Shown here piece after piece: positions 20,791 through 64,000 of a DNA stretch of 64,000 nt. The DNA comes from Dipteris shenzhenensis (Eukaryota), in the NCBI GenBank assembly GCA_047967505.1, contig CM106538.1; one strand, 5' to 3'. A program made the position numbers and the translations under genes. The notes below the pieces were generated by a model. That model saw only the letters and a list, made by a program, of their open reading frames with translations, had not been told where the DNA came from and did no database searches. Each line of letters starts with the position of its first letter. The stretch's first letter is position 1.

Positions 20791-20794
20791 AGAC

Positions 20795-22938: not shown

Positions 22939-22993
<55 letters not shown>

Positions 22994-36119: not shown

Positions 36120-37203
36120 TTGGGAGGGAAAGAGGGGAAAAGAGGGAGGAAAAACAGAGGAGAAAAGAGAGAAATGAGAGGAGAAAAGAGAGAAAATAAG
36201 AAATAAAGAGAGGAAATAAGAGAGATAGAGGGAGGGGAGAAAGAGGACATGAAAATAAGAGAAAGGAAAAAAGGAGAAGAGTGAAGGAAAAGAGAGTCCG
36301 ATAGAAGAGGAAAAGAGATGGGAAAAGAGGGAGGGAAACTAGAGGAGAAAAGAGAGCAAGGAGAGGAGAAAAGAGATAGGAAAAGAGGGAGAAAAAAGCG
36401 AGGAGAAAATATAGAAGCAGCGAGAAGAGAGGAAATAAGAGAGGAGAGGAGGAAAGAGAGGAGAAAAGTGAGGAGAAAAGACAACAAAGGAAATAAAAGA
36501 AGAGAGGAGAAGAGAGGGGAGAAGAGAGGAAATAAGAGAAGAGAGGGGAAGAGAGGAAAATAGAGGTGAGGAAGAGGGAGGGAAAGAGGGGAAAAGAGGG
36601 AGGGAAAATCGAGGAGAAAAGATAGGAGAAGCGAGGAGAGGAAATAAGAGAAGAGAGGAAATAAGAGAGGAGAGGAGAAAAGAGAAGAGAGGAAATAAGA
36701 GAAGACTCAAGGGAAATAGAGGAAAAGGGAGGGGAGGAAGAGGGAGGGAAAGAGGGGAAAAGAGGAAGGAAAAAGAGAGGAGAAAAGAGAGAAAGAAGAG
36801 GAGAAAAGAGAGGGGAAAAGAGGGAGGCAAAAGCGAAGAGAAAAGATAGGAGAAGCAAGAAGAGAGGAAATAAGAGAAGAGAGAAGGAAAGATGAGGGGA
36901 GAAAAGAGGGGGAGAAAAGAGAGGAGAAAAGAGAAGAGAGGAAATAAGAGAAGAGAGGAGAAGACAGGGAAAGAGTGGGAAAGAGAGGGGAGGAGGAGGG
37001 AGGGAAAGAGGGGAAAAGAGGGAGGAAAAAGAGAGGAGAAAAGAGAGAAAGGAGAGGAGATAAGAGAGAAAAAGAGGAAATAAGAGAGGGAAAGAGGAGA
37101 TAAGAGAGGGAAAGAGGAGATAAGAGAGAAAGAGAGGAGATAAGGAGAGGAGAAAAGAGAGGGGAGAATGAAAGGGGAGAAGAGAGGAGAAGAGAGGAGA
37201 AGA
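36120..37203. repeat. ~1.1-kb polypurine (A/G) low-complexity tract
   Basis: Nearly pure A/G with recurring GAGAGGAAATAAGAGA units; on the - strand it lies between a GTAAG donor (~37306) and an AG acceptor (~36117). Confidence 0.92.
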
Positions 37204-37434
37204 GTTATTACATCCATCACTACAACTATCGCTTAAGGTGCTAGCTGCTGCAAGCCAATGCTATCACGAAAAGAAAAATAGGAAAAGAGAGGAAGCACAT
37301 TCTTACCTAGAAATGATGTATCCTGGCACTGGATGATCCCACTCGGAAGAGGAGTTGTTTCATGTCCTAGCCCTATAAAGGAGAGAAAACATACCATTTA
37401 AGGAAACTAATTAGTTTGAAAGGAGGATTTGGAG

Positions 37435-42530: not shown

Positions 42531-42539
42531 TCTAAGCAT

Positions 42540-43290
42540 GGAGATAAATGAATCATATAGAAATAGAATGTTTAATGATGTGAGAAATGCTATAAAGCCA
42601 ACTACCTGGTGGAAGAAATGCTAGGTTAACCTAGTTTCTTCCATTTCCATGCTTTGTTTATTTCTTTGCAAGTTGTAGGCAATTAAGGAAAACAAAGATT
42701 ACTTACACTTGGAAGAGCTTAGAAATGGACTGGCTATCTAAGCCATTTGACAATGGATGGACAACAAGAACATGTCATGCTGAAGATTTAGCACAATGTC
42801 GATTGAACACTTCAGATGTGACATTTCAGTGAGCAAATCTTACAATTCTTGTTTGTATAAAAAATGATAAGGATACTATGTATTGATAGATCCCAAATTT
42901 TGCAGGCATTGCATTGGAAGGCAAATCTCTGCATGACTTTCACATATAGAAGGTTTAGATGGAAGAACCTTCAATGGGAAGCAATGGATGATGATATGCG
43001 TGATGGGACTCACAGTCCTATTGTCGAGGTATCAATTTATTGCGGCAAGGACATCCTGATCTAATGTTGGAATTGGAAGATAAGTGGACCATGTGATTTA
43101 TCAGGGAAGAATTGTAGTTGGCAATAGCAAGCCCTCCCCAAGACTATTATTTTAGACTTGATAATCACAAAGTTAGATATAAGGATGAGACAAGTATCCT
43201 TTGTAAGAATTGTTGCCCTCCCCATACTCTAGAGATAGTAGAGACATGATGGCAGGTATTTCATATGATATCTAGTTTCTTGGATCCTTA
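42540..43290 (+). pseudogene. Unnamed protein, copy B (homolog of the C-terminal part of 27899-32555), 5'-truncated
   Basis: EINESYRNRMFNDVRNAIKP..VNL/FLPFPCF..KPFDNGW..FTYRRFRW..AMDDD..SPIVEVSI..KDILI aligns by eye to SITESYRAKLFLEVQHSLKP..INVFIPFTIF..FGNGW..FYYKCSRM..AMDQD..GPIIEINV..NDILL. Confidence 0.7.
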
Positions 43291-43546
43291 GTGCTTCATC
43301 AATGCACTTGGTAATAAGGCATTGCTACATGTATGAATAGAAATCATATATAATACAAAGTGTTGTTTCATTTATTATTAATATTTTTAAAATTAAGTAT
43401 GGACCTCTAGATGGATGGCTCTCTATGGTCTATGAATGATAAAGCGATAAATATTTGTAATTTTAAATTTGTGTGGGTATTTGTATATCTATATTGTGCA
43501 AGATAGAGAGTGTGTGATCTCGAGATAGATAGCAATTAGAGCATGT

Positions 43547-43552
43547 GAGAGA

Positions 43553-43609
<57 letters not shown>

Positions 43610-43669
43610 AGAGTACAATAAGCGACACAAATAATGCACCTGGCCATGAGACAGAGTTAGATGTATGGC

Positions 43670-43703
<34 letters not shown>

Positions 43704-44244
43704 AGTCAGGGACACAAAGGGAGAAAGAGACAAAGGGAGGGGGAGGGATACAAAGGGAGACAGAGAGAGTTAAGATTGCATTTATTCATTTGAACCTCTA
43801 AGTTGAGAAAGAGAAAAATATGAAAGTTAATTAAGGTCTTTGAGAGTACGAGATTGAAGAAAAACCCAGATACAACTGATCCAAAGGGTGGATCCGCTAA
43901 CAAAATACAAAAATTGTATACATGAAATCAATGTCCATGACAATGGAGACGAGGACAGAAAGAGAGAGATGGAGAGTGGGATAGAGAGAGAGAGAGGTAG
44001 AGAATGGGAAAAGAGAGAGAGTTAAGATTGCATTTATTCATTTGCACCTCTAAGTTGAGAAAGAGAAAAATAAGAAAGTTAATTAAGGTCTTTGAGAGAC
44101 TATGAGATTGAAAAAAAACCCATGTACAACTAATCCAAAGGGTGGAGCCGCTAACAAAATACAAAAAGTGTATATGTAAAATCAATGTCCATGACATAGA
44201 TAGCTAAGGGCAACATGGCAACAAGATGATCATCGGGTGTGAGG

Positions 44245-44294
<50 letters not shown>

Positions 44295-44360
44295 CAATAG
44301 GGACACAAGGGGAGGGAAAGAGATAGAGAGACAGAGAGAGAGCAAGGGAGAGGAGGGGAG

Positions 44361-44397
<37 letters not shown>

Positions 44398-44578
44398 AAG
44401 AGAGCAATGAGGGACACAAAGGAAGGGAAAGAACGAAAGATATAATAACATCCTCAGAAGACCTTGTGGGTCTATGAGAGAGAGAGAGAGAGAGGGAGAT
44501 AGCTAAGGGCAACGAGAGAGAGAGAGACAAAGAGAGAGACAAAGAGAAAGGGAGAGAGAGGAGAGGGAGATAGCTAAG

Positions 44579-44612
<34 letters not shown>
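43547..44612. repeat. (GA)n-rich region with ~250-bp direct repeat
   Basis: Multiple (GA)n tracts; GAGTTAAGATTGCATTTATTCATTTG...AATCAATGTCCATGACA at ~43765-43942 and ~44017-44196. Confidence 0.9.
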
Positions 44613-44615
<3 letters not shown>

Positions 44616-44790
44616 TCCAAAGAAAAAATAATAAATATAAAAATATTGTAATTAAGAGCATTTTTAAGGGCAATATCCATTTATAAAGTACACTTCTAAG
44701 GTCATTTTCACATTTTCAATTTTCCAGTCTTGAGTAACCTTGCATTTCATAACCGGCCTCTTTCATCTTCCCGAGCATCCTCCTACACTC

Positions 44791-47039
44791 ATGGCTTCCC
44801 CTAGAGAGGCTTTTGACTAGTGGATTTCATCCATTGATTCCCATGCCTCTGCAGATCAGGTTTATCCTATCTTCTACAAAGCATTCCATCTTGAGTCACA
44901 CTTGAGTGCTCTTCTTCCTGTTGATAATCCCTCTCTTCAATTTTTCGATAGACTTATCCATGGGCAATCTGTCGCGATTGCTAACTCCCTCACCAATGGG
45001 TTTCATTGGATATTTTGAGCTATTTTGACCAGAGTGCTAACTTCAAGAAGAGATTAGGTAGGGCCATGGATAATGTCCCTATCTCTCTCCATGAGTACAC
45101 TATTACCATTGGGGATGATTCATCTTCCCCAATTCATTTGATTGAGAGAGATGCAACCCTTACCATTCTCCTTGCGACTAGCAAGCTTGATGAGGATATT
45201 GGCGAGCAACCCAAGGGTCCTGCATCCACAAGTGGTGGAGTAGGTCCATCAACAAGTGCTGGAGTAGGTCCATCAACAAGTGGTGGAGGAGATGACCTAA
45301 ACCTAGACTTAGAGCCTAAGGAGCATACTATTAGCCTCGCTGAGGAGTAAGTTGAAAGCGAGGTCATCTTATCTTCATATCCGACTCGTGCATATCCATC
45401 CTCTACCTATAACCTAGATGAGGCAGCAAGCAAGCCACACCTTGCTTCGGTTGATCCAATCAGGATTGAGGGTGAGGAACACCTTACTCGAAGTGATGGA
45501 AGAAACCAGTCTCCAAGAGGACGAGGTGCTCTGTCGGCTCTCGAATTGACACTTTCGATGATGTCATTGACTTTGATGCTCTAGTGAATCTAGCAATCGA
45601 TGAGATTGCACACTTTGATGACTCGAGCCTCACCGATCTGGAGGCAATCCAACTAACACAGAAGGCAATTGAAGATGCCACACCAGAGTACGACATGTCT
45701 GATGTGAGTAGTTCATGAATTTGAAGAGGGAATTGTTCGGGGATAGAGATGAAGAAGCTAGCACCTCAAGCTAAAATGAAGTTCAAGACCAACCACAAAA
45801 GGGAGTCCAGTTGGACACTGTAGCTGACACACTCTGCGATGAGGTAGAAAAGGTATGTAGCTTTGCTAGCTTCATCATGTGATCCAAAATCATCAGTATA
45901 ATTCTAGGTTCCATTTTAGGAACAAAAATCATTGCTTTTTCTTGAATTGGTAGGGAATAAAAAATAGGGTTTAGGGTTTAGAATAGAAACCCAAGCAAAT
46001 TTTATGATTTTAAACCCGACATCCTGCCACTGCCACTTGCCCCTAAATTTTTGGAAACAATTAGGGTTATGGTTTTGTAATTTAGGAAAAAAAAAGTTCT
46101 AATCAAATTTGGGAGGCCACTAACACCCTAGCAACCATGTGCATCATTTTCAAGCCAAAACCCCCCCTGGAAATCCTAAATTTGACATCATGCGACCAGA
46201 GCCCTGTTAAATGATGCACATGGCTGCTAGGGTGTCAGTGGCCTCCCAAATTTGATTTAGGGAATGAAAAATAACATTGAGAGTTTAGAGTACAAAACCC
46301 AACCAAATGTTATGATTTTAAACCCAGGACATCCTACCATTGTCACTTGCCCTGCCACTTGCCCCTGACACATGCCCGTGCCACTTGCCCCTCGCACTCC
46401 ATTTATGTAAATAGGGTTATGGTTTTTTCACAGGTAAAAATCATATCTTTAAGAAATGATTTGGGAGACCACTGGGACCCTAGCAACCATGCCCATCAAT
46501 TTTATGCAAAAAAAAACCCTGCAAGCCCAAAATCTAACATCATGCGACCAGAGCCCAGCTTCTGTAGAAATTGGGTGCGACCAAAAGCTGGGCTCTGGCT
46601 GCATGATGTCGGATTTTGGGCTTGCAGGAGTTTTTTTGGCATAAAATTGATAGGCATGGTTGCTAGGGTCTCAGTGGCCTCCCAAATCAGATTTCTTAAA
46701 GATATGACTTTTACTTGGAAAAAAACCCTTATTCTTATTAATTCTTGAAAAATGACATTTTATTAATTTATATAATCTTTGGATTTTGATGTAATATGTT
46801 GGTTGTAGGATATTTTATGGGTTGATGAGTATACCGGATGCAAGGGTGGAACCAGAGGGTCTTCTGGTGGGGGGATGGCATCAATCAGACTACATCAACG
46901 GAGTGGCTCAATACATTTTGGTGTTCCATCGACAATTATTGCTAGATGGAAAGATAAATATCATGAAGTTCAAGGTCCTCAGTCAGATGGTGAAGATGAG
47001 GCCCATTCATCCTATTGCCGATCGTGTTGTTTTGATTAG
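44791..47039 (+). pseudogene. Two-exon decayed gene, acidic/disordered exon 1 and HTH-like motif in exon 2
   Basis: Donor AAG|GTATGT at 45853, acceptor TTGTAG at 46809; phase-0 join reads ..RSGSIHFGVPSTIIARWKDKY (46899-46961), an HTH-type pattern; an alternative frame runs to 47223. Confidence 0.4.
46101..46727. repeat. Two related intronic inverted repeats (foldbacks)
   Basis: Arms 46101-46149/46209-46257 and 46421-46564/46582-46727 (17-nt loop); both contain ATTTGGGAG(G/A)CCACT..ACCCTAGCAACCATG. Confidence 0.92.
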
Positions 47040-48537
47040 GCGTAGTGTAGCTTTATTTTTGTTTTCAGACACACAATTTGGTCCGCTTTATAGTATTATA
47101 GCTAGTGCAGGGCTAGCTGGCATTACAGATCCCTTGGCTATAGAGAATGAAATTGTGCAGCCCTCTTTGCTTCAGCAAAAGCAAAAAAGGGATCTAAGCC
47201 AAGCAAGAAGAGGCGTAGACTAGAGTAGCTTAGGCATTCAAGCTTTAATGATCTTTATGATATTACTCAATGTAAATAAAGAATACAATTTTCAAATTAT
47301 TTTCTCTTCCCATTTACAGAACATTCTTTCCTTTACTATGTTAAGTAAAATTGAGTATTATTTCCTTTTGCATGTTCTATTAAGATGTGATGTTTATTAT
47401 TTCATTTTGCTTTTGTATACATTGAGAGTGCATGTAAGTAAATTAATAGATTGCAAATACATTGAAAATAAATTTAAGATTGCACATGCAAAGACAATTC
47501 TAAAAAAGACATTTTATTATATTGATGCCCATAGGCAGAGTACTTGTAAGGTAGATGCCCATAGGCAGAGTACAAGATAGATGCCTGTAGGCAGAGTATA
47601 AGGTGGAGCATACAAAATAAGACCGTATTAGATAATTCGGGAAAAACCCAATTCCCAGAATGGCAGTTTTGGAAGAAATTGTAGCACCCCTCAATGAAAA
47701 AACAGGAGAAATATGTGAAAATAGACTAGATAGCCATTCATGAAGTGTGAAATATCAACTACATTCTCAAATAATAAATAGAATATCAGTGTCTAAACTA
47801 CGTTATCATCAACAAAATAATAAACTTTGAAACCCATTTGAGTTAGATTCATCTCGTGAGCCATAGTGATGTTCAAAAACACCTTCATAATAGCGAGTCT
47901 CTGGAATTTCCATTGATATTGAGACTCGCTTTTGTTGTGAGCATTCTCATTTGAAAATCTCCAAAACACCGTTTAAAAAATGTAGAGTGTAATTAATAAC
48001 CATGAGTATTGCAATGAAAATGCACAGGCTCTTTAACTTAGTAAGATATGTAGTTGATGGAAAATCAAGATATGTAGTTGAGGAGAATGTATGCAAGATA
48101 TGTAGTTGATGGAAAATCAATGGGCAATGACAAGCATTTGATGTAATTTAGGTGGCAATGACAATCATTTATTGTGCACTTTCAATGTTTAGACTGACTA
48201 GCATTATTGTAAAACGATAACTTTACATGTCATGTTGATTACTCATTGCAAAGTAAAAAAGTACACTTTAGGATGAAAACATAACTTCTTGTTGATACAC
48301 CATTGAAATCCCTGAAATAAATCATGATTCCAAAGAAACTCTCAATTTCTAGCCCCAAAGAGAATGGCACCGGAAAGAATGGCACGAGAGACACTCCTTC
48401 AAAATACATTATGAATGTAGTTATGAACATGTTTGCATATTATTCACACACAACAATTACGCACCAATTTACATAGTTGGCAAGAAAGTAGTAATTCCCA
48501 TAAGTAATGATTATATAAAGAAATACAATGTTATTAT

Positions 48538-51500
48538 TCAAAACTCATAGTCTGCAAATAGCTTCTCTCCTGCATGTATATCATCTATGGATTCAATACA
48601 AATGTGACCATATTCTACAATATCTATGTTCATCATGGGGTCATACCAAGGTGGAACATCAGGGGAAAATACATAACAAACATTTGGCTTTACATTGGTA
48701 TTTCTATTGCTGTTAATAAATCCTGCCACATTGCCATATTGAACATCACCAACAATATGCACCATATCCTTCATAGGGACAGTAGGGTCCTCTTGGATAG
48801 AGTACTTCTTTAGCCTTGGATGAACTCTACATAATTCCTTCCAGTCTCTGTAGGAGTACTTGTCACCTCCATAATGGAGAATAGTAGTCCATTTCTTGAT
48901 GGAGCCATGCACAAACACACCTGTAATGGTTGACTCATGCACCTCGAAAGCCACATTTTTTATCCAGAACACTTCGTTGATAGGGACAGGTAACTTTGGT
49001 GGTCCAAATGGATCTCGTTCTGGTATGTACCTACTCAAGCTTGATTTGAACGTATATCTATCTACATCACAAAAGAAAAATTCAATTAGCTACAACAACA
49101 GTTATATATATCGAGATAAAATCAAAAAACACTTTGACATATGTACCTTCATGAAAATACACATTCTGTAGTCGGTTTATGTAGCCCTTAGCAATGTATT
49201 TCTTGATATAGCGACCTTTGTACCCTAGGTCTATAGCCAATTGAGAAACTTGCATAGATTCATGCTAGAGAGTTGTGGAGCATTCCTTAAAAGTCTTATT
49301 TGGGATGCATTGAGTTTAGGCACCTGGCCATCACCACCATGGGTTGCCCTACCACCTATATCCCTCTCTCTTAGTTGATCTACAAAAGGAAGATTTCTTG
49401 TTTTATATTCCATTCTTGACCATGCATGATTTTCCTCCCTCCATTCATCAATTACTTTCTGGACAAGGTTGAAATCCTTATGCCCCTCCATCATAGGTAA
49501 TTGTCCATACCGATTTGTCTCAATCATGCTGCGCACATCTTTAGTCTCATCGAGTTGTAGTAAGTACGGCATCAACTCTCTCAGTAGAATATTATCATCC
49601 TTGTCTTGTACATCAAACGTTGAAGGAAATATGCAATTTGATGGAGGGCTAATGCAAGCCTTGTATGGGGAGTCATCAACAAGGATTGTCCTTCTAGCAT
49701 CACATCCAAATGCCTTTGAGATTTTTGCCAAGGGTTTGAACATTGCCTCAACACCAACCTTGTCAGGCCTATTTATCCTCGTCTTACTGTAAGTGTAGCA
49801 TCCTTGTTGAGACCATATAACAAAGAAAGGGAGGCTCTCATTTGCATAATTTTGCAGCTTTCCTACCATATCAAGTACGTTATGCTCCATCGCAGTTGAC
49901 CAGATACCTACATTAAATCTTTGTAGCAAGATTTTAAGAAATTCTATGCACCCAGGACGAACAACCATATAACTATTTTTGCCATGCATAATGGACGGAT
50001 GTATTGGAGACTTGAATAGGCAGCAACTTAATAACAGGCCATTCAAGTCTAATATGATTGTTAATCGTGGCATATCCAAAGAAATTGTATGTGGATATAG
50101 ATCCAAATTCTCCTTGAAGTTGCTGGCTTCTGACTCATCCAAATTGTCAACAGGTGCTATGATTTCATACATGTTTGCAACAACAATAAGATTATCTAGT
50201 TTTGTCCCCAATGTTGAGACAGTACGTTCATCCATGTTCTCTTCTAAAAGTATAGGATTCGTGATATTCCTTGCAATTTTCTCCATTTTTGGGGTTATGT
50301 TTTCTTCTATACCTCCTGTATCCATCGCGTAATTGATAGTCCCCAGTTTGGGTGGTATGTTGTCCTCTACATTTGATGTCTCCACATCCTTCCATGCATC
50401 ATTGGTCCCTGTGGAAGTTGAGGAATATAGAAATATTTTGATTCTTTAGAGTGTATTCAACAATGTCGATGCACAAAAGCATATGAAACTAATAAATAAC
50501 AATAAAGTATGAGAATTATCCATCGTCGTTCATCACTGATTCCATTGTATTTTTGGGGAATGGCAAAAGTGCCAATCTCTCTAAAGTTCAATTGAGAATG
50601 CAAATAGTGCAACCTTTCTCTCTGAACTCATAGAGAGAATGGCAATAGTGCTATTCTTCTCTTGAGGTGGTGCTAGTGCCATTTTACATATAAGGTTATG
50701 GAGAATGCCACTAGTGCCTTTCTCTATACCCTCATTGGGAGGAGAGAATACTACTAGTGCCTCCCCCCATGTCCCAAAAGAAATGTACAATGCATGATCT
50801 AAAAGCATAGATACTGTATTACTTTGGTCCAATAGATTTGTAGAAAGCACCCAAATCAAAACTTTGGTAGCATAGTTAATACTATACAATTTTTAATCTC
50901 TGTAATGCTTTCAACTGACATAGATTCAAGAAAGGAACATAACAGTATTACCATTTCTACATAACCACAAAGAGAGAATGGCACTAGTGCCATTCTCCAT
51001 ATGAGGTCGCATAAAATGTTAATAGTACCTCTTATGTATAACCCGACATAGGGAGAATGACACTAGTACCATTCCCCATGTCATTATGTCACGCAATTTT
51101 ATCATACCTAATGTTTAATATCTTTAATATAATGAGAGTATGTGCAATCGAGAAAATCCATAAAAGTCATATTATTTTGAAACTGAATACACAAGGCATA
51201 AATGAGTAGCTAAAGACCTTGTTCCAAATCTTCCAATGTAATCTTTGGGATAGCTTCAAGATCTGCTTCAGTTAAAGGTCGCAAGTCTTCAATGTGATGC
51301 TCACCCTCTTTAATTCCTTCATCGATAGGTGAATCAGCTCTTTGTGTCTCAAGAGGCCTCTCAATGCTAGACCAAATCTTAATATGGGGATTATTTGATG
51401 CATGTGCCACACACATAGCCTCGACCTCTGTCGCCTGTTGGGATGTCTTCACCAGTGAGATCACTTTTCTTTTGCTTGACAATGCTTGTAATGCCACACA

Positions 51501-54212
51501 TCCATTAGTAAAGACGTCAACAACAACTTCATGTTCCCTACTACAATAGCACCTGATGCACTCCTTGATGATGCCATGCTTCACAACCGCCTCTTTTTCA
51601 TACTCATCGCCCTCATCAGAATAAAGAATATTGTCCTCAATTATTGTGTATGGCCTTGCGATTTCTAACATGTGCTCAAATCCATCAAACCCATCATGTG
51701 AGCTGACAAATGACAAAAAACAAAAGGTCTCAGACAAACCCTTTTGTGCACTATCCGATTCATGGATAACACCCACAAACCTTCTATGCCAAAATCGAGC
51801 CTCTATCATTGCTTCCTTGAGATTTACCATCTCTATCATTGTCATAAATGATAGCAATACATACTGTGACGGAGTGGCAACGGTCTCCATCAAGCCACAG
51901 AGCAACTTCTTGAAGGCATCCTTATCCCAACACATGCCTTTGGCAGATCCCTTTGAGGTGTCAAGCACACACAAGCTGATTGGAAGTTGTCCCTTGGAGT
52001 GACGTGTTAGAAAGCTCTCCCCCTCCATCTCCATGTTCACTTGAATAATTGTCCAAGGAAAACAAGACTGAGATGTAGACTTGTTACCCTCTATTGAACT
52101 AATCACCCAATCAACATAGATTGACACGGCTTTTGGGAAATCAGGTGTGGACTTGCCAACTTGCAGCTTCTCTTTGACCCATGACTCACATGAACCCTTG
52201 AAGCTCTGATAAACAATTGAATCAATTTTGAAGTAAGTTGCAAGGGCATCCCATGTTTGATGTTGGGGCGAAGGGTGACGTGAGTTGAACTCCTTGATGA
52301 GTGCTTCTTTCAGGGCTCTATCATGCTTAATCTCCATTGCCCATTGAGACATTTCAATGGAGTCCTTGTCTTTGCTTGACTTGACAAAGACTATTTCTTT
52401 AGACTCAATCTCTGCTTGAAGTGCACGTACATCTTCGTCTTCCAATCCTAGCAGACACCTCATATATGTTATTGTGGGATTTCGACCCTCAAGATCACCC
52501 TGCTTCACCAATGTCAAAATCCTAATCCATTGTTCGTAGATGTCATCATCGTATGTGACCATGTGTGTCCTTGGTAGCAAAGTTTGTGCCCATCGATACG
52601 CTTGCAACTCTGGCAAAATTCTATATAAAAAAATCAAAATCATCTTAGACATTCCTCTAATCCAAATCCTGTAATAGAGATAATAATGACACTAGTGCAA
52701 TTCTCCCATTACCATGTCAAAAGCATGACTTGGTAACTAGAAGAATGGCACTAGTGCCATTCTCACATCAAGGAATTGACACTACTATCATTTCTTTTAC
52801 AAATCCATAAACATTCTTGAAATAAAAAATGCATACAAAACAAAGTTTATTACTCACATCCCAACTTTGTCAATCTTTATGCCCTTTGACAAGGCCTTGG
52901 GCTAGTTTCTTTGGTCGTCTGAATGCAATCCACTGTGCCCTTAGGTGTTGTAAGATATCGATATATGGTTGAGTTTTCAAAACGGTCTGTGCCTCCATGT
53001 TGGCCATTGATGATATCTTACAACTTGCTTCAACTGGTGCATTGACAACAATTCTCGCCTTCCTCCATGTATAGAAACCTTTTCATTGATTGAAGGCTTC
53101 TCCATGTGCTTTAGTTATAAATATCCTTGCAGCATAAATCGAATGCTGCCCTGCGAGAATCCAATAATTATACTCCTTTAACTTTTCCACCTTTATCTCT
53201 TCCTTGGACATCGGAGTATTTGTGCCTATGTGGTAAGGCATAAGATATGCACATGTTGCAGGAGGTCATGCATTCATTGCAAAACTCTTGACCAAGTCAC
53301 TGACATAGCTAAGGGTCAATGTCCTGTACACATATTGGCTTGGTGCTCTAAAGCAATTCATCACTGGGATCAACACCTCAAACTCCAAACCAAATGGGAA
53401 GTACTCTATGTACTCCATCAAGCCTGTCATACTTGTGTCCTTCCTTTCCAATTTCTTTTGTAGTGCCTTAAAGTCAACATCTGGCTGGATTTTCTTATAT
53501 TGGATGATTTCTCACCATGTCCTGTTATATGTGTCTCACCACTCCCCATTGCATCACCTCCACTTCTAGTTCCATTAGTGACTATTCCCGTACCTCCCTG
53601 TTTTCCTCCTAAAGTTGTCTCTTTGTCTTTAGCCTCTAGTTTATCCCCAATGCTTGTTTTTCCATCTGACCTTATTTCCTTCTCACCTGTTGTTTCCTCC
53701 TCACTGGTCTCTCTAGCCTTCTCTTTCAATGTGTGAGCAATGTGTTCTGAGACACTTGAGAGCTTGATCCCTCCATCACTTTTCTTGGTTCTTTTCGAAA
53801 CTTTTCTACTCTTTTTTATATCTTGCTTTATCCCTTTTGTTACCAAATCAAAGCTTTCTAATATTTGTTGATTGGTATAATTTTCTTGCTCATTAATCCA
53901 ACCCCTAGATATCATCGTGTCCTCCCCAGTAGCATTCATCCTCGCATGATCAAAACAAGCAGGATCCAATTGATACACATTGCCTCCCAATGTATGAATT
54001 TTGAGAAAAGGAACGTTGTCTTTCTCGGTATCCTCCATCTCTTTAACTTTTCCAACATCTTCAAAAGTTGCTCCTTGGATGTTCACAAAACAATGCACTT
54101 TATGGAGTTTTTGGAGTTCGTTATTGTATATATCCAAAAACCATCCTCTTCTAGAACTAACTCCATCATAAACTGACACCTCTCGAACCTTTCTCTTTCC
54201 CTTGCTAGCCAT
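48538..54212 (-). pseudogene. Multi-exon multidomain gene: ParB/Srx-like + degenerate N4/N6 DNA methyltransferase-like + NIF/FCP1 (HAD) phosphatase-like + SET domain, ~1,500 codons, lightly disrupted
   Basis: Exons 54212-52858, 52620-51218, 50408-49147, 49061-48538. YRTL..V.DLVKSF..YWILAGQHSIYAAR..ARIVV..ISSMAN; SLCVLDTSK..KHGIIKECIRCYCSREHEVVVDVFTNGCVALQALSSKRKVISL; IILDLNGLL..RPGCIEFL..VGIWST..TILVDDSPYK; GVF..ILHYGG..GNVAGFINS..PNV..IHAGEKLFADY. Junctions 2-3 and 3-4 are phase-compatible; three in-frame TGA stops and at least two frameshifts. Confidence 0.75.
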
Positions 54213-54619
54213 TCTTGCAATGTTCTGTTAACAAAAGAAGCAAGGACACAATGAAATGTATAATAGAAAATCATAAACTTAGTAGGAAATATTACAACCA
54301 CAATGCAACTTCTATTAACAAAATAACCAAGGTGAAGCAACTTATATATGCATTATGAAAAACTACACCAACACAGTAAGCAAATATACACAATATCAAA
54401 GTTAAGATGGTTATAATAAAGAATGGTATTCGTGCCATTCTCCAACATAATATGATGTTAGAAGAGTGTCACAAATGCCATTGAACACATGGATTGTGAG
54501 TTTGTTCAGAATGGCACAAGTGCCATCCTCCGTGAGAGTTTAAGGATAATGCCACTGGTGCCATCCTCCATGATGTTAAGGAGAACGGCAGAAGTTCGAT
54601 TCATCACATGGAACCACTA

Positions 54620-57600
54620 CCATTCTCCACTTGTGGCATTCTACACAGAGATTGACACAATTCCATATGATCTCTACGCAGTGCAGACAGTGATCACTAC
54701 ATAGAAGAATGCACATTTGAGTTTAAGATTCCTTATGCATGTTTTCAGGTCATGGCATGAGATTGGCACCACTGCCATTCTCCACTGGTGGCATTCTCCA
54801 CATAGATTGACACAATTCCATATGATCTCTACACCGCGGAGATAGTGAACACTACATAGAAGAATGCACATGTGAGTTTAGCATTCCTTGTGAATGTTTT
54901 CAGGTCATGGTATGAGATTGGCACCACTACCATTCTCCACTGGTGGTATTCTCCATAGAGATTGACATAGGCTTCTCAATGCCATTTCTTAGGGCCTAAT
55001 AAGAGATTGGCACCACTGCCATTCTCCACTTGTATAGATGTTTACCCTACTATTCTAGGAGGGGTATTCCAGTGATCATAGGAGAGTGGTGTCCGATTCC
55101 AATCCACATGTGAGTTTGATGATCTCAGTGTCATTATGTAGTTGCCAGCATGAGATTGGCATCACTGCCATTCTCTGCTAGTGGTAGTCTAGACAAACTG
55201 AACCTATAGATTGACATTCCACTAATTTTATTGGCTGCAGTAGGATAATGGCAAAAGTGCCAATGCACATGTGAGTTTAGGATTCCTTATGCATGTTTTT
55301 AGGTCATGGTATGAGATTGGCACCACTGCCATTCTCCACTGGTGGCATTCTCCACAGAGATTGACACAATTCCATATGATCTCTACACAGCGGAGACAGT
55401 GATGACTACATAGAAGAATGCACATGTGAGTTTAGGCTTCTCAATGCCATTTCTTAGGGCCTAATAAGAGATTGGCACCACTGCCATTCTCCACTTGTAC
55501 AAATGTTTACCCTACTATTCTAGGAGGGGTATTCCAGTGATGATAGGAGAGTGGTGTCTGATTCCATGTCTGATTCCAATCCACATGTGAGTCTGATGAT
55601 CTCAGTGTCATTATGTAGGTGCCACCATGAGTTTGGCATCACTGCCATTGTCCACTAGTGGTAGTCTAGACAAACTAAACCTATAGATTGACATTCCAAG
55701 GCCTAATAAGAGATTGACACAATTCCATATGATCTCTACATAGCGGAGACAGTGATCACTACATAGAAGGATGCACATGTGAGTTTAGGCTTCTCAATGC
55801 CATTTCTTAGGGCCAGCATGAGTTTGGCATCACTGCATTCTCCGCTAGTGGTAATCTAGACAAACTAAACCTATAGATTGACATTCCACTAATTTTATTG
55901 GCCGGAGTAGGATAATGGCAAAAGTGCCAATGCACATGTGAGTTTAGGATTCCTTGTGCATGTTTTCAGGTCATGGTATGAGATTGGCACCACTGCCATT
56001 CTCCACTGGTGGCATTCTCCATAGAGATTGACACAATTCTATATGATCTCTACACAACGGAGACAGGGATCACTACATAGAAGAATGGCAATGCACATGT
56101 GAGCACATTACCACTAGCGGAGAATGGCAGTAGGATAATGGCAAAAGTGCCAATGCACATGTTAGTTTAGGATTCCTTGTGCCAATGCACATGTGAGTTT
56201 AGGCTTCCCAATGCCATTTCTTAGGGCCTAATAAGAGATTGGCACCACTGCCATTCTCCACTTGTACAAATGTTTACCCTACTATTCTAAGTTTAGGCTT
56301 CACAATGCCATTTTCTAGGGCCTAATAAGAGATTGGCACCACTACCATTCTATGCTTGTACAAATGTTTACCCTAATATTCTGAGAGGGGTATTCCAAGG
56401 ATCATAGGATAATGGTGCCCGATTCCAATCCACATGTGAGTTTGAGGATCTCAATGTCATTATGTAGTTGCCTACATGAGATTGGCATCACTTCAATTCT
56501 CCACTGGTGGCAGTCTAGATAAACTAAACTTGTATATTGACATTCGACAAATTTTATTGGCTATAGTAGTATAATTGCAAAAGTGCCAATGCACATGTGA
56601 GTTTAGGATTCCTTATGCCATTTTTAAGGTCTAGGTATGCTACCATTCTCCACTGGTGGCATTCTCCACAGAGATTGACACAATTCCATATGATATCTAC
56701 ATAGCGGAGACAGTGATCACTACATAGAAGAATGCACATGTGAGTTTGATGGTCTCAGTGTCATTATGTATTTGCCAGCATGAGATTGGCATCACTGCCA
56801 TTCTCCACTAGTCGTAATCTAAACAAACTAAACCTGTAGGTTGACATTCCACTATATTTATTGGCTGTAGTAGGATTATGGCAAAAGTTTCAATGCACAT
56901 GTGAGTTTGATGATCTCATTGTCATTATGTAGCTGCCAGCATGAGATTGGCATCACTTCCATTCTCCACTAGTGGTAGTGCCAATGCACATGTGAGTTTA
57001 GGATTCCTTGTGCATGTTTTCAGGTTATGGTATGAGATTGGCACCACAGCCATTCTCCACTGATGGCATTCTCCATAGAGATTGACACAAATCCATATGA
57101 TCTCTACACAGCGGAGATAGTGATGACTACATAGAAGAATGCACATGTGAGTTTAGGCTTCTCAATGCCATTTATTAGGGCCTAATAAGAGATTGGCACC
57201 ACTGCCATTCTCCACTTGTACAAATGTTTACCCTAGTATTCTAGGAGGGGTATTCCAGTGATCATAGGAGAGTGGTGTCCGATTCCAATCCACATGTGAG
57301 TTTGATGATCTCAGAGATTGACACAATTCCATATGATCTCTACATAGCGGAGACAGTGATCACTACATAGAAGAATGCACATGTGAGTTTAGGATTCCTT
57401 GTGCATGTTTTCAGGTCATGGTATGAGATTAGCACCACTGCCATTCTCCACTGGTGGCATTCTCCATAGATATTGACACAATTCCATATGATATCTACAT
57501 AGCGGAGATAGTGATCACTACATAGAAGAATGCACATGTGAGTTTAGGCTTCTCAATGCCATTTCTTAGGGCCTAATAAGAGATTGGCACCACTACCATT

Positions 57601-58904
57601 CTCCACTTGTACAAATGTTTACCCTAGTATTCTAGGAGGGGTATTCCAGTGATCATAGGAGAGTGGTGTCCTATTCCATTCCACATGTGAGTCTGATGAT
57701 CTCAGAGATTGACACAATTACATATGATCTCTACACAACGGAGACAGTGATCACTACATAGAAGAATGCACATGTGAGTTTAGGATTCCTTTATATGTTT
57801 TCAGGTCATGGTATGAGATTGGCACCACTGCCATTCTCCACTGGTGGAATTCTCCACAGAGATTGACACAATTCCATATGATCTCTGCACATGTGAGTTT
57901 AGGCTTCTCAATGCCATTTCTTAGGGCCTAATAAGAGATTGGCACCACTGCCATTCTCCACTTGTACAAATGTTTAGCCTACTATTCTAGGAGGGGTACC
58001 CCTGATCATAGGAGAGTGGTGTCCTATTCCATTCCACATGTGAGTTTGATGATCTCAGTGTCATTATGTAGTTGCAAGCATGAGATTGGCACCACTGCCA
58101 TTCTCCGCTAGTAGTAGTCTAGACAAACCGAACCTATAGATTGACATTCCACTAATTTTATTGGCTGCAGTAGGATAATGGCAAAAGTGCCAATGCACAT
58201 GTGAGTTTAGGACTCCTTGTGCATGTTTTCAGGTCATGGTATGAGATTGGCACCACTGCCATTCTCCACTGGTGGCATTCTCCACAGAGATTGACACAAA
58301 TCCATACGATCTCTACACAGCGGAGACAGTGATGACTACATAGAAGGATGCACATGTGAGTTTAGGCTTCTCAATGCCATTTCTTAGGCCCTAATAAGAG
58401 ATTGGCACCACTTCCATTCTCCACTTGTACAAATGTTTACCCTACTATTCTAGGAGGGGTATTCTAATCATCATAGGAGAGTGGTGTCCGATTCCAATCC
58501 ACATGTGAGTCTGATGATCTCAGCGTCATTATGTAGGTGCCACCATGAGTTTGGCATCACTGCCATTTTCCACTAGTGGTTGTCTAGACAAACTAAACCT
58601 ATAGATTGACATTCCACTACATAGAAGAATGCACATTACCACTAGCGGAGAATGGAAGTAGGATAATGGCAAAAGTGCCAATGCACATGTGAGATTGGCA
58701 CCACTGCCATTCTCCACTGGTGGCATTCTCCATAGAGATTGACACAATTCCATGTGATCTCTGCACATGTGAGTTTAGCCTTCTCAATGCCATTTCTTAG
58801 GGCCTAATAAGAGATTGGCACCACTGCCATTCTCCACTTGTAGAAATGTTTACCCTACTATTCTAGGAGGGGTATTCCAGTGATCATAGGAGAGTGGTGT
58901 CCTA
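54620..58904. repeat. Modular tandem array of ~150-160-bp units (3 unit types, ~465-bp higher-order repeat)
   Basis: About 25 copies of GAGATTGGCA(C/T)CACTGCCATTCTCCAC, e.g. at 55003, 55152, 55313, 55468 (spacings 149/161/155) and 57935, 58082, 58243, 58398; second shared node CACATGTGAGTTT. Confidence 0.95.
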
Positions 58905-59169
58905 TGTGAAGATTGTTGAGAGTTCACGCTCAACATCATGTGATCATGTGTGCATAGCACCATCACGTGATCATATGTGCATAGCACTAACCTTATAGAG
59001 TGCTATAAAGGAAAGGGTTAGATCCCCTAACCCTAACCCTAAAAGGGTTTGTATATATTCTATTTTTTCAACTAATTCTAGTGTACAGTTAGTCATTTGT
59101 GGTGTGCTCTCTAGCTGTGCCCTCTCTCCTCATCTCCACTCTTCTCCTCTCCCTCTTCATATTTTGTCA

Positions 59170-59181
59170 TGGTATCAGAGC
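59170..59181 (+). promoter_or_regulatory. Primer-binding site complementary to initiator tRNA-Met 3' end
   Basis: TGGTATCAGAGC immediately after LTR-terminal CA. Confidence 0.95.
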
Positions 59182-60579
59182 TTCCTTGTCTTCCGCTGAG
59201 ACATTGTGATTCTTGAGAGTGATTGAGAGTTTGAGAGATTGAGAGAGATTGAGTGTTTCATTCTCTTCCGTTGAGAGAATTTCCGTCCATTGAAAGAAAT
59301 TTCTATCATTGCTCTTGAGAGAATTCTGATTGAGAGCTTATGTTTTTCATTATTGAGAGAAGAGTGAGAGAGCTTACAAAGCTCGGATATAGGGAGAGTT
59401 CATTTGAGAGAAAAGAGAGTTTCCAGAGACTATTGAGAGTCTTGTGAGAGCTCTTCGTGAGAGAGATATGCTTATGACAGAGAGTCTGAGTTAGCCAAGG
59501 CCTCGACTTACTTCTATGTCCAGCGCTGCTACTGATTGCTGCCAATTGCTTGACCTTCACGAGCATCGACCTACGCTACTCCTTCCTAGGTCCCAACGCC
59601 CACGGCAACAACAGCAAATGAAGCTCCAACAATACTCAAGCTGCCGCTCAAGGGTCTTCATTCGAGTTGAGAAACTTGCCGCGTTGAGAAGCTCCAAGGC
59701 ATCTCCTTCGTGAAATGATTATCGTTGCCAGAGCTTTCCTGACCGGAGAACAAATTCTTGTCCACTGTGATTGTGGCCGAAAGGGAGACAAAACGTTGCT
59801 CACCCCAACTTTGATAGGATTCCTGGGGCGTGCAGGATCCATTCGCTCCTTGAGCAGCACGGGGCGATTTCTCCCAGCTCCCGTTTACTTTTCTAGCAGG
59901 AAGATGCTTCGAAGAAGATTTTCTTTGATCGGTCAGCTGCTGCTCTGGGTGGGGATTATGCTCAAAGCCGTAGGTCTTTGACGAAGATATTCCTATGACA
60001 TTACAATCCGATCTTCAGCCACTGAGCGTGAAGCTGAAATGCCGTCCTGTACAGCAGCGCCTTGAGCTGCATTTCCATGGGCAGACCCAGACCCATTCCG
60101 AGCGACCAAAGCAGGTCCAATCCCAAGCCTGAGCTCAGTATCCTGAAGGTCCAGATCGAACGATTTTGCATAGTCATGAGGAGCAGCGATGATATTCTTG
60201 TCCCGTGGTACAGAGATTCTTGGTTTCTCTTTCAGCACCGTCCACGCTATTACTCGGTCGTAGTAGTGCTCCAGTCTTCGAACAATCGCGGCTCCTGAGG
60301 CGCAGCCCAAGCTCCTTCCATGCCCGCGACCTGCAACGGCAAGCCTTATTGAAGCGTAGCCACAAAGCACGCTTCCTCTTTGACAAGGTCGCCTCCATCG
60401 ACTCTCTTCTCTGAGAGAGAAACTGCCACGTGGCAGATAAGGCCACGTGGCACTCTTCAAACCACACCCACCTTGGGTCAAGGTAATTTGGGTAGCGTTA
60501 CTCTGGTTAGAAGTGGATAGGGTTGGTTACATTAACCAAGGTCTAGTTAACCTAGGATAAGGTTGTCTCACCTATTGAC

Positions 60580-61035
60580 ACGTGGCACGCTCAACGACTG
60601 CCACATCATCAACTCTCAATCCCATCAGTGCCATGTCATCAGCCTATCCACACTGCCACGTCAGCATTGACATGTCAGCAATCCACATCATCACCGACTG
60701 CCACGTCATCATCGACTGCCACATCACTTGTGCCATGTCATCAGTGCCACATCATCAGGCCATGTCATCAGTGCCATGTCACCAGGACACGTCATCAGTG
60801 CCAGGTTAGCATTGCCACATCACCTTGCTGACATCATCTGTGCCACCTCAGCACTGCCACCTCAACAGTCCAGTCAGCACTGACCCTCTACAGGCACAGT
60901 CCCTTGCCAGGCACACTGTGCACACACTACATGTGCACACTCCTGCCACCTCAGCACAGAGCTTCACTGGCACACCTCTTGCTAAGCACAGTGCCACATC
61001 ATCACTACATGTGACTCACAGTGACACATCATCAT
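60580..61035 (+). repeat. TGCCACATCA/TGCCACGTCA/TGCCATGTCA minisatellite-like cluster in copia leader
   Basis: Roughly 20 degenerate copies; two GCCACGTGGC palindromes just upstream (60425-60451). Confidence 0.85.
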
Positions 61036-61814
61036 TGAGCACCATTTGCACTCCTTTTGCCCCTCCACCTAGATCAAGTCATATCTCTTGATCCAGGAAG
61101 AATTTGAGGGTGCTCCAAAAAGGAAAGTCGCTCGTTTTTTTGTGCTCTACGCGCTCGTTACATCAACGCACATTTCGGCACAAGTTACACTCACATTTGT
61201 GCCTCGCCGACAAAACCACTTCCTTCACGCACATTTGCCTCTACATCGACGCATCTGACCCAGCACTTAAAAAGAACAAAAGAAAAGGAATTATTTGTTG
61301 CTCTTTCATCGATCGACGGTTGGTTTAGATCTAGATCAGAGTAGACTAGATTGCCATAGAGGGGACGCTTTGAATTCCCCAAGTTGCCAATCTAAGCCAT
61401 GCCCAAAATTCCTGACTAGTTTCTACTCGGAGTCAGTCCATACGCTCACATCCGATTTCACATCATTACATTACCTAAAACCTTACGTTCATCAGTTCAG
61501 TGAGCAGACTTCAGAGTACAGAGGCATTGCAGATTGATTCAGTGGGCAGATAGCACTTGATTTCACACACACATGCCACCATTCTAAAGCCTATTTGGCT
61601 ATCTCATGGCATTGTGCACATCATTTTTCAGCCTTGTAAAGCCTCTTGGCTATTCTCGGCATCATTGCCACAAGCCTTGTAACACAGATTAGATCTTATA
61701 TACTGCAGTTCTATCTTCACCGACGGTACAGAGATTTCACTTGGCATCTTCAGTGTATTTGCAGTTGATTCATATAGAGTTTTTCAGGACACTTTTGAGT
61801 ACATTGTTTGCACC

Positions 61815-64000
61815 ATGTCGACTAGCAACCTCAATCTGGAGGCATCTGCTAAGTTAGACAACTCCAATTATGGTACATGGAAATACCGAATGGAGACCAT
61901 TCTTGTGCTTCAGGACAAATGGGAGTATGTCGATGGATCTATACCCAAACCATTGGACGATCCAGCCACCAGTAGCTCTACTCCATCTGTTGTCACAGCA
62001 CCAGCAACGGAATCTACATCGGGATCTACATCTACACAAACAGTTTCCACACCAGTAGCAGATCCTGCCATTGCCTGAGCTCAAGCAGAATGGGATAAGA
62101 AAGACAAGTATGCCTATCACCTGATCAAGCAAAACGTGCAAGATATCATGCTAGGACAGCTCAACATAGTTAAGACGTCAAAAGAAGCATGGGATATGTT
62201 CACAGCTCTCTACGAGTCCAAGAACACATCCAGGATTCTCACCCTGAGAAACCAGATCAACCAGAGTTTCTGCAATAGCAATGAAACCGGTCATGCTTAT
62301 GTACTCCGCATCAAAGACTACAACAATCAACTTGCAGCAGCAGGAGAGACTATGAATCCCACAAAAATGGTTCAAGTAATCCTGAATGGACTAGGAGAAG
62401 GATATGAGAATCTAGTCCAGAGTATTGCCATCCAATGGCAAATTCCAACACTGGAAGAACTTCAGTCAGTTCTACTTGGTGAAGAACTCAGGACTCAGGC
62501 CATTCAAGCACATAAAGGTCATTCTAATGATCAGGCATTCACAGCTTCAGACAGAAGCAGAGGCAAAGGCAGAAACAGAGGTAGATCATATCAGAAAAGT
62601 GGTAATCATCAACAAAGTCAAAATCAGCATCATCATCAACATCATCCTCATCAGCAACATCAGAATCAGCAAAGAGGAAATCATTCCAACCGAGGAAGAT
62701 TCCAAGGACGAGGGAATGCATCCACCAATGTGTCAAACATTCAATGCAACTACTGTCACAAGTTTGGACACTATGAAAGAGATTGCTGCAAGAAGCAGTA
62801 CGACCAAGGCGGTCAATCCAGCAATAATCGAGGGAATTCCCGAGGAAGAGGAAATCATCGTGGTGGACATTCTAGTCACAGTCATTTTGCAAATGAACAT
62901 GGAAATATGTTTCTTGCAAGTGAGGAATTGCATGAGACTGATACAATGCACCTAGACACTGATTTCAATCCCAAAGAGGATTTCAGCTATCAAGTCGACC
63001 AAGTGGAACAGGATCCTTGGTACATCAACAGCGCTGCATCATCTCATATGACAAATCACTAGGAATGGTTCATAGAAATGAATCCATTAGAAGGTCAAAA
63101 GAATGTCATCTACACAGCAGACAATACACCGAATCCGGTTCAAGGGACAGGTGTTATCCCTATGAACAATTTCACTGGTACAAAAGGATTAGTCAAAGAT
63201 GTGCTCTATGTTCCAAAGCTCAGCAAGAACCTTTTGTCAGTAGGTCAAATGAAGGAACACAACTACAAAGTCATCTTCGACGGTGATGAATGCACTATCA
63301 GAGACAAATCCAAAAGAGGTCAGCTAGTAGCAAAAGGTGTCAAGGAAGGACGCTTATACAGGATGCTAGCTACAGTACCAGATAAGCATGCCATGTCAGC
63401 TCAAATGCAACAGATGCCACTATCTGCAAAATGGCACAAGAGATATGGTCATGTCAACTTCAAGTACTTGTTAGATCTCAGGAATCAGAATATGGCAATT
63501 GGGATTCCGAAGCTACAGTTTCTTGGAAAAGTTTGTGAAGCATGCTGCTTCGGCAAACAAAAGCGAACCAACTTTGTCAGAAGTACCTCTCATGCACGAG
63601 GTATTCTTGATTTGATTCATATAGATGTATGGGGTTATGCCCAGACCTGCAGCATCAATGGTTCACTTTATTACTTGACCTTCATCGACGACTACAACAG
63701 ATATTGTTGGGTCTACTTTCTGAAAGAGAAATCTAAAGTGTTTGCCAGATTTCAAGAATTCAAAGCCATGGTAGAAAACCAGACAGGCAGAAAGATCAAG
63801 GTCATGAGATCAGACAGAGGAGGTGAATACATGTCTTCAGCATTCATGAACTTTTGCAAAAATCACGGCATTCGAAAGACAATTCACATGTGCAGAAACT
63901 CCTCAGCAAAATGCAAGAGCTGAAAGGAAGAATGGGACTTTAGCAGACAGTGCTAATGCTTAGTGAAAAGCATCTTTCGAATCAGTATTGGGCAGAAGCA
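61815..64000 (+). pseudogene. Copia gag-pol (partial), with in-frame stops
   Basis: KLDNSNYGTWKYRME, UBN2-like gag, CNYCHKFGHYERDC, protease WYINSAASSHMT, WHKRYGH..CEAC, integrase HIDVWG/FIDDY/RSDRGGEY; stops at 62076-62078 and 63060-63062, frameshift near 63890. Confidence 0.93.

Follow-up and report, generated by a model that had tools for sequence, protein, structure and literature searches.

In the red alga Bostrychia moritziana, giant Plavaka (EnSpm/CACTA) elements carry accessory genes, among them PAG2, in which a PF01555 methylase is combined with a SET domain, and PAG3, which combines a ParB-like domain with a 2-oxoglutarate (2OG) oxygenase. In the available part of that report the protein is proposed to bind its own element, via adjacent inverted-repeat arrays, and to modify it, and VANDAL is named as the only case in which self-binding or self-marking by accessory proteins has been demonstrated (bioRxiv 10.1101/2025.02.11.637652). 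Similarly, the available text on Ectocarpus describes a 1104 aa accessory protein of Sola1-1_Ec32 that combines a DNA-binding domain of the ParB-like type with an N4C/N6A methylase, and considers such proteins a possible new accessory class (PMC12477816), and ParB-helix-turn-helix (HTH) domains fused to Dam-type methylases are listed for chlorophytes and chytrids in the accessible part of Iyer et al. 2016. Here we describe a 24-bp dyad motif that flanks and interrupts a decayed multi-domain gene in a 64-kb stretch of Dipteris shenzhenensis DNA (64,000 nucleotides of contig CM106538.1, assembly GCA_047967505.1; hereafter the window). We tentatively read this dyad as the multimerised docking site of a dimeric DNA-binding protein of the same selfish-element family, most likely encoded by intact copies of the adjacent gene. 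The layout has already been proposed for algal transposons; the present locus is a case from the land-plant side, in which the domains are fused in another way, the enzyme modules are apparently dead and introns contain sites too. Our literature search, which did not take in the supplements of the algal papers, turned up no gene or dyad array of this kind from ferns or any other land plant.

The motif is composed of two inverted 10-bp arms, GAGAWTGGCA, and a 4-bp centre (GAGAWTGGCA-N4-TGCCATTCTC; in its full form GAGAWTGGCA-N4-TGCCAWTCTC, 10 + 4 + 10 bp), and depending on the stringency the window holds 26-42 such dyads. The core TGGCA-N4-TGCCA has 26 exact matches, all located within 8.3 kb (50,561-58,829), against a chance expectation of 0.12, and this number was reached in 0 of 100 shuffled windows. 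When up to 3 mismatches to the 24-mer were allowed, 19 matches were obtained between 50,635 and 58,834 (expected 0.00), with a perfect palindrome at 50,974-50,997 and a copy with 1 mismatch at 52,741-52,764. We also scanned for the arms, scoring the 20 arm positions and requiring at least 15 of them to match; this gave 42 matches, 41 of which are non-coding (50,556-58,834), while none was found in the remaining ~55.7 kb and none in 3 shuffles. The first-pass annotation of this DNA had reported a palindrome family filling the introns and the upstream array of the gene, with the full dyad seen nowhere else in the window, and both statements are borne out by these counts. The perfect palindrome that it had named was found in place, the copy that it had put near 52,742 is the 24-mer with 1 mismatch, and its degenerate copies near 50,557, 50,634, 50,701, 51,053, 52,685, 54,421, 54,508 and 54,547 were recovered by the arm scan, and the one near 50,744 by the repeat family.

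The elementary unit is the 10-bp half-site GAGAWTGGCA, which with at most 1 mismatch occurs 109 times in the window, 96 times inside 50,400-58,910 and 13 times outside, compared with 2-9 occurrences per whole window in 5 shuffles. None of the 96 half-sites falls within the 4,476 bp of exon, and the sites both flank and interrupt the gene. The claim that the copies lie outside the exons holds for the half-sites; in the arm scan, a single weak match (15/20, at 54,003) falls in the first coding block. Half-sites are paired in inverted orientation, which gives the dyad, in everted orientation, or as direct repeats 15-16 bp apart, an arrangement also known from the protein-bound subterminal motifs of plant DNA transposons, such as those of En/Spm TnpA. 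The 4-bp centre varies (CTAG, CCAC, TCAC, AAAG, ATAG, CAAG, CTGG, TTCG) while the arms are kept, which is the pattern expected from a dimer that contacts two half-sites. Metagenome contigs were scanned with the dyad pattern as well; 10 of them gave one isolated match each, with GC contents of 35-68% and no clusters, and these matches are read as chance.

The upstream array begins ~207 bp upstream of the ATG and adjoins the gene, a feature also described for the algal accessory genes. It opens with a degenerate proximal cluster (54,419-54,640), followed by 29 segments, each of which starts with CACAT(G/T)T(G/T)AG; the exact opening form CACATGTGAG is present in 27 copies, when 0.15 would be expected. 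Three unit types were distinguished, A of 155 bp, B of 149 bp and C of 161 bp, which mostly follow one another in the order A-B-C (~465 bp), with some units shortened or recombinant. The dyad begins at unit position 48 in A, B and C alike, and C units carry an additional second dyad, GATAATGGCAAAAGTGCCAAT. Only two blocks are conserved between the consensus sequences of the three types, namely the CACATGTGAGTTT box, with agreement at 13/13 positions, and the dyad plus 3 bp, with agreement at 25-27/27; outside these blocks the agreement is 13-19/34 in the spacer and 23-25/73 after the dyad. A, B and C units are clearly diverged copies of one ancestral unit. DNA contigs of one sequencing run span the gene and the array at ~96-99% identity. 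Contigs of another run, which may be RNA, cover exon parts at 48,546-49,062, up to the intron acceptor, and at 53,608-54,089, and none of the array bins from 54,673 to 58,674; this coverage is not taken as a sign of expression or of silence. The right edge of the array (~58,906-58,913) is not its natural end but corresponds to the insertion of a Copia long terminal repeat (LTR) retrotransposon, a boundary placed where contigs of high abundance end loosely, at 58,913/58,914. We also observed that A units contain CACTACATAGAAGAA / CACTACATAGAAGAATGCACATG, in 12 copies (54,695-58,637), which resembles a CACTA-type terminus; reiteration of a transposon end may have given rise to the array.

Beyond the array, 2-3 dyad copies occupy much of the ~237-bp intron (~52,621-52,857) that separates the N-terminal block from the methylase-like exon. 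In the ~809-bp intron, one cluster (50,556-50,767) holds 4-6 copies and another (50,974-51,076) the perfect palindrome with 1-2 degenerate copies. Two direct half-sites sit ~155-180 nt downstream of the stop codon (48,538-48,540), in the 3' untranslated region (3'UTR), so that the motif family brackets the gene and the left boundary of the feature can be set at ~48,360. Among the 12 copies outside the array, pairwise identity is 74-77% in the arms, values that are inflated because the copies were selected by arm matches, and 68% in the centre. Their flanks show 27-29% over 20 bp on each side and 34% in the next 6 bp, against a composition expectation of 26%, and this random level is informative despite the ascertainment on the arms. 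Outside the array, the module is thus a 24-30-bp island in unrelated sequence and not part of a longer repeat. Four predicted homologues (P0076, P0079, P0080 and P0081) end by read-through into an intron after ...PW(K/E/Q), which is the position of the 237-bp intron and appears common to distant homologues. The intron is therefore older than the palindromes, and the idea that palindrome insertion created the introns, as in introners, was rejected.

The dyad feature is real and non-random, and since the dyad is conserved both between unit types and in the intron islands, the footprint favours a putative protein-binding site, which is how this conservation is best read. The linkage between motif and gene was scored at one locus (n = 1, the 64-kb window). 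The adjacent gene, intact copies of which would most likely encode the binder, is described below with its structure, relatives and domains.

The gene lies on the minus strand and was modelled with an ATG at 54,212, four coding blocks and three introns (~237, ~809 and 85 bp). Alignment of the first block with uninterrupted fern proteins requires a frameshift near 53,500-53,520, and the block holds in-frame TGA stops at 53,266-53,268 and 53,083-53,085; a third TGA at 52,870-52,872 may be a stop or the sign of another frameshift near 52,870-52,895. A frameshift is also required in the NIF exon, near 49,250-49,270. In this copy the gene is a pseudogene, disrupted by two in-frame stops and by no fewer than two frameshifts. 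All four stops that interrupt the frame of the first block, the one at 53,512-53,514 included, are TGA.

A HMMER pass over 1.84 billion representative proteins found only 63 that are related to the large exon, the best of them being 33% identical. Twenty clusters were looked up, and the 9 that carry a name are all fern (8 from Adiantum nelumboides, 1 from Ceratopteris richardii), while the remaining 11 consist of metagenome or read-assembly proteins. The fern homologues include MCO5596946.1, MCO5591555.1 and MCO5590628.1 of Adiantum nelumboides and KAH7436354.1 of Ceratopteris richardii. A 1125-aa Adiantum protein has the same domain order through the phosphatase and lacks SET, a domain that was not present in the fern homologues examined. 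Adiantum possesses many diverged paralogues, and some of its annotated proteins are merged with retroelement fragments. Few relatives, many paralogues and fusions to retroelements together indicate that the gene family behaves like a mobile-element gene. Scanning metagenome contigs with the 493-aa exon gave 21 pattern stretches, none of them a relative, and a search for longer relatives of this exon found none.

The structural model of the large exon, based on a 53-sequence alignment, reached a predicted local distance difference test (pLDDT) score of 86 and displays a beta-class N6A/N4C DNA methyltransferase fold at residues ~208-442 of the 493-aa frame. The structural match to CcrM has a Z of 14.9, with a root-mean-square deviation (rmsd) of 3.4 A over 200 aligned residues, and ten further beta-class DNA methylases follow at Z 12-14.5, with TTHA0409, M1.HpyAVI, MboIIA, the EcoP15I and Mbo45V Mod subunits, M.BceJIV, rotifer N4CMT, PvuII and RsrI at Z 12.1-14.5, against a background of Z ~6 for unrelated rows. 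In agreement with this, Foldseek with the same model gave 25 matches at E < 1e-3, led by and mostly consisting of beta-class DNA methyltransferases. The large exon has no Pfam match to a PF01555-type methylase, and its membership is assigned by fold. The helical part of the model (residues 29-128) matched the SYNCRIP acidic domain at Z ~6, which was treated as not meaningful. Downstream, the SET domain (PF00856) scores 28.7 bits against a cut-off of 22.4, and its NHS motif reads NSN.

Several results obtained with the protein weigh against a docking site that is read by products of this gene. The catalytic DPPY-type motif, (D/N/S)PP(Y/F/W), is missing from the methylase-like module in 15/15 aligned members, where T, S, N, L or A comes after a conserved Asp and variable residues come next, while a motif like the S-adenosylmethionine (SAM) loop, D(V/I)F(S/T)xG, is mostly retained; the module is a member of the fold with a probably inactive site. 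The phosphatase DxDxT motif is likewise non-canonical in 5/5 sequences, when the window was compared with the fern homologues P0068, P0007, P0009 and P0013: the window and two of the fern proteins have DLNGL in its place, the two others SLCGL. With SET counted, all three enzyme-like modules thus have non-canonical catalytic motifs. At the level of these motifs, the gene family is suggested to consist of pseudo-enzymes that serve as binding modules, and the protein seems to be a scaffold for reader modules rather than a triple enzyme; any effect would consequently have to come from binding, scaffolding or the SET domain. No recognisable DNA-binding domain was confirmed in the protein either. 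Pfam models of the ParB clan and PF02195 matched 0/13 family members at E up to 10, the pieces from the window included, and ParB was also blank in NCBIfam, in a PDB profile search (0 matches) and in tblastn against phages and plasmids, while the AlphaFold model of the N-terminal and ParB-like part was unusable (pLDDT 36). The motif YWI(I/L)xGxHS resembles the DGQHR-type motif of ParB-superfamily proteins, with ParB identity unconfirmed, and ESM features provide a weak lead, with a top value of 0.95 to fungal DUF3723 and 0.91 to a cluster in which 35% of the members carry ParB_N. Finally, the copy of the gene in the window is unable to make the full protein. The first-pass annotation had proposed that a ParB-fusion protein recognises the dyads and delivers SET, methyltransferase and phosphatase activity to its own locus. 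That interpretation stands in part: the dyad behaves as a constrained cis-site, being one of the two blocks kept across unit types, and the arrangement has an algal precedent. The ParB identity found no confirmation, delivery of methyltransferase or phosphatase activity is doubtful although the methylase fold is real, and the gene copy turned out to be a pseudogene.

The surroundings of the gene are transposon debris (Table 1). The Copia element that breaks off the dyad array at 58,913 is covered by contigs with depths of hundreds to thousands, which are depths per contig and give no copy number. The CACTA element at 14,705-22,871 is bounded by CACTACTAGACACGG... (CACTAC...) and ...CCTTGTAGTG (...GTAGTG), with TAC flanking both sides. 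It carries a perfect 16-bp palindrome of its own, GTCGCTATATAGCGAC, in 9 copies against 0.08 expected, which is part of 26-bp tandem repeats inside both ends (14,801-14,891 and 22,676-22,743) and at an internal site (19,287-19,333), so that palindromes in subterminal tandem repeats are normal for the DNA transposons of this genome. The DNA that flanks this element is itself repeated, at 14,620-14,705 and 22,915-23,040 (gacagt(a/g)gtacaatggttctctctc ... cttaagatagta); either a tandem repeat was the target of the insertion, or the element and its flank were duplicated as one. No DNA similarity of at least 150 bp was found between its transposase remnant and that at 1,988-4,555. Around the gene (42,600-58,912), no CACTA...TAGTG termini with a 3-bp target duplication were found in the window, and the true ends may lie outside; the same approach, applied by eye, does recover those of the element at 14,705-22,871. 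A canonical En/Spm-type terminus pattern had 0 matches in the window, and the terminal-pair scan gave nothing convincing. Domains were searched with Pfam in 93 open frames (12 + 81, the 81 being drawn from 120 frames of at least 90 aa), the frames left out being mostly low-complexity or overlapping. Other features of the window include long TC-rich/GA-rich tracts at 19,922-20,717 and 36,651-37,298, which are inverted, ~16 kb apart and 73-76% similar, GA microsatellite blocks at 43,500-44,650 and, downstream of the gene, a foldback or MITE (miniature inverted-repeat transposable element)-like structure at 46,101-46,740 with arms of 104-108 nt that are 79-90% complementary.

Table 1. Features of the 64-kb window and their positions
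Feature	Position	Strand	Remarks
Upstream repeat array	54,419-58,912	.	~4.5 kb, satellite-like
First coding block	52,858-54,212	-	conserved N-terminal beta-rich domain, low-complexity linker, 'ParB-like' region YWILAGQHSIYAA
Large exon, uninterrupted	51,218-52,620	-	1.4 kb; helical region and methyltransferase-like fold
NIF/FCP1-like phosphatase exon	49,147-50,408	-	Pfam E 2.9e-20
SET exon, last	48,538-49,061	-	Pfam E 1.9e-06; ends ...FADYEF, then stop
Dyad copies, ~237-bp intron	52,682-52,794	.	52,682; 52,741 (19/20 arm positions); weak copy at 52,771
Two dyad clusters, ~809-bp intron (~50,409-51,217)	50,556-51,076	.	arm scan and repeat family
Two direct half-sites, GAGAATGGCA and AAGAATGGCA	48,360-48,384	+	starts 48,360 and 48,375; letters given for the + strand; 3'UTR
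Copia-type LTR retrotransposon	38,336-42,531	-	
Copia-type LTR retrotransposon	58,913-64,000	+	gag and pol frames 61,683-63,920; extends past the window
CACTA transposase remnant	1,988-4,555	-	diverged; Transposase_21 E 1.3e-38; DUF4218 E 9.1e-27
Bounded CACTA element	14,705-22,871		Transposase_21 (E 1.6e-46) and DUF4218 remnants at 16,494-18,219, strand -

The array can also be explained as an ordinary nucleosome-sized satellite or minisatellite that expanded in the non-coding DNA of a locus rich in transposons and in decay. The dyad would then be the part of the monomer that unequal exchange and gene conversion homogenised best and would bind nothing specific, insertions into exons having been purged while the gene was alive. 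We consider this explanation somewhat unlikely, and part of the evidence that supports it counts against a docking site at the same time. Units of 149-161 bp are typical of ordinary satellites, and here they are organised in a higher-order pattern of ~465 bp, in which some units are recombinant or truncated, amid Copia and CACTA debris and next to a dead gene; contigs of other sequencing runs join the motif copies differently, as they would for a recombining repeat. Within types, the box departs from the consensus at 1/208 positions, the dyad at 7/384, the spacer at 17/544 and the remainder at 69/1323, so that the dyad is significantly better preserved than the remainder (p = 0.003) but not than the spacer (p = 0.29). 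Moreover, conservation in a tandem array can stem from unequal crossing-over or gene conversion and not from selection, and the arm identity of the copies outside the array has to be discounted for the way in which they were selected. The comparison between types speaks against a satellite: two short boxes aside, unit sequences have diverged to 32-56% identity, with the dyad retained at 93-100% and in register, a pattern that homogenisation of whole monomers would not yield. Satellites do not spread as 24-30-bp islands in unrelated sequence, as the intron module has done, and the arms are kept while the 4-bp centre varies, which equally speaks against a plain satellite.

Binding by a different kind of protein has to be considered as well. 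In that case the dyads would be subterminal sites at which a transposase or TnpA-type helper binds to bring together the ends of a large DNA transposon (CACTA/EnSpm-like or of another superfamily), and the multi-domain gene would be a passenger that does not read them. The two CACTA transposase remnants lie on the strand of the gene, the bounded CACTA element has a subterminal palindrome of its own, CACTACATAGAAGAA in the A units resembles a CACTA terminus, and the red-algal accessory genes reside in CACTA-type Plavaka elements. Nevertheless, we judge this unlikely: within the window, which ends at 64,000, the gene is not enclosed by a CACTA terminal pair, and the half-site scan of the window revealed no second dyad cluster that would mark another element end. 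The transposase remnants are 30-50 kb off, and one of them belongs to the separate bounded element. Sites in introns and the 3'UTR are left unexplained by the synapsis of ends, and the array measures at least 4.5 kb, as opposed to ~100 bp of repeats in the subterminal regions of the bounded element. It is far less probable still that the palindromes act as structure, either as hairpins in pre-mRNA or array transcripts that feed small-RNA silencing or as cruciforms that affect replication or recombination. The perfect 24-nt palindrome can indeed form a 10-bp stem with a 4-nt loop, and copies are present in transcribed introns and the 3'UTR. However, degenerate copies lose their symmetry by independent, non-compensating changes in the arms (e.g. 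GAGAATGACA...TACCATTCCC and GAGAATGGCA...TGCTATTCTT), which speaks against hairpin selection, many half-sites are paired in direct or everted orientation and are incapable of forming a hairpin, and no Rfam match was found across 47,500-59,500.

Returning to a docking site for a protein of the same element family, candidate readers of the site within that protein would be the conserved N-terminal domain, the possibly ParB-like region and the catalytically degenerate methylase-like module. Further modules are the NIF/FCP1-like one, which resembles RNA polymerase II tail phosphatases, and, in this lineage, SET. Such a protein would have dozens of sites to occupy, in the array near the promoter, within introns and at the 3' end, and its binding would concentrate modules that interact with chromatin and transcription on the element's own DNA, by which the element's own transcription or silencing could be influenced. 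A more specific version, which we regard as rather doubtful, is that selfish-element proteins of land plants of the fern type read a private 24-bp dyad through a ParB-like module, a dead-methylase module or both, and then use their pseudo-enzyme (CTD (C-terminal domain)-phosphatase-like) and SET modules to alter RNA polymerase II or histone marks on their own DNA. Should the dyad be the address label of the adjacent protein family, a plant selfish element would here offer a protein/cis-site pair that is compact and open to testing, with a defined site (10-bp arms and a free 4-bp centre), a second box, CACATGTGAGTTT, at fixed phase, and protein modules that touch DNA, histones and the polymerase II tail. 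The idea of self-marking by accessory proteins would then extend to the fern/land-plant lineage, with apparently dead enzyme domains as readers. Should the array be a plain satellite, the matter would be one of routine repeat annotation.

The site resembles parS of the bacterial ParB-parS system in being palindromic, multi-copy and located beside the gene of its putative binder. The parS consensus is a 16-bp palindrome, unlike the 24-bp site with a free centre described here, and the present case further differs in that the N-terminal ParB domain is undetected by profiles and the context is eukaryotic, with introns; a ParA/CbiA-type ATPase partner was not found among the 93 scanned frames. In En/Spm, TnpA recognises 12-bp subterminal motifs, direct and inverted, over a few hundred bp at both ends of the element. 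A short motif in direct and inverted orientation around a promoter, with 96 half-sites in our case, is common to both, and TnpA affects transposition as well as epigenetic state; the differences are that the sites here extend over at least 4.5 kb at a single side and into introns, and that neither a TnpA-like protein nor termini were found in the window. With Sola1-1_Ec32, as described in the available part of that report, the locus shares a fusion of a ParB-like region (putative here) to a beta-type methylase; in Ectocarpus the fusion is carried by a giant DNA transposon and is proposed to represent a class of accessory proteins that bind their own element and modify it epigenetically. Sola1-1_Ec32 belongs to another transposon superfamily, its methylase is predicted to be active, in contrast to the module described here, which lacks DPPY, and that part of the report gives no SET or phosphatase domain and mentions no cis-repeat array.

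The likeness to PAG2 and PAG3, drawn from the accessible description of these genes, covers the set of a PF01555-type methylase, SET and a ParB-like region (only putative here), the tandem inverted-repeat arrays beside the gene and the degenerate state of most copies. There, the domains are distributed over two genes, whereas here they are in one gene, with a NIF-like phosphatase and without an oxygenase; here, in addition, the methylase and phosphatase motifs are degenerate and dyads are also found in introns and the 3'UTR. As for the hosts, theirs is a red alga and ours is plant-like, its relatives being ferns, and the two systems are likened by description. VANC of VANDAL, which is Mutator-like, is unrelated in sequence, has no enzyme-like domains and recognises motifs that are not long dyads; in the frames scanned with Pfam, neither a MULE (Mutator-like element) transposase nor a VANC-related match was detected. 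What VANDAL and the present locus have in common is an element-encoded protein, only proposed here, that recognises short motifs amplified as tandem repeats in the non-coding DNA of its element. On the same rather doubtful joint reading of private dyad and pseudo-enzyme modules, the result would be a self-addressed epigenetic module that is analogous to but independent of Arabidopsis VANC, and related in kind to the PAG proteins of algae.

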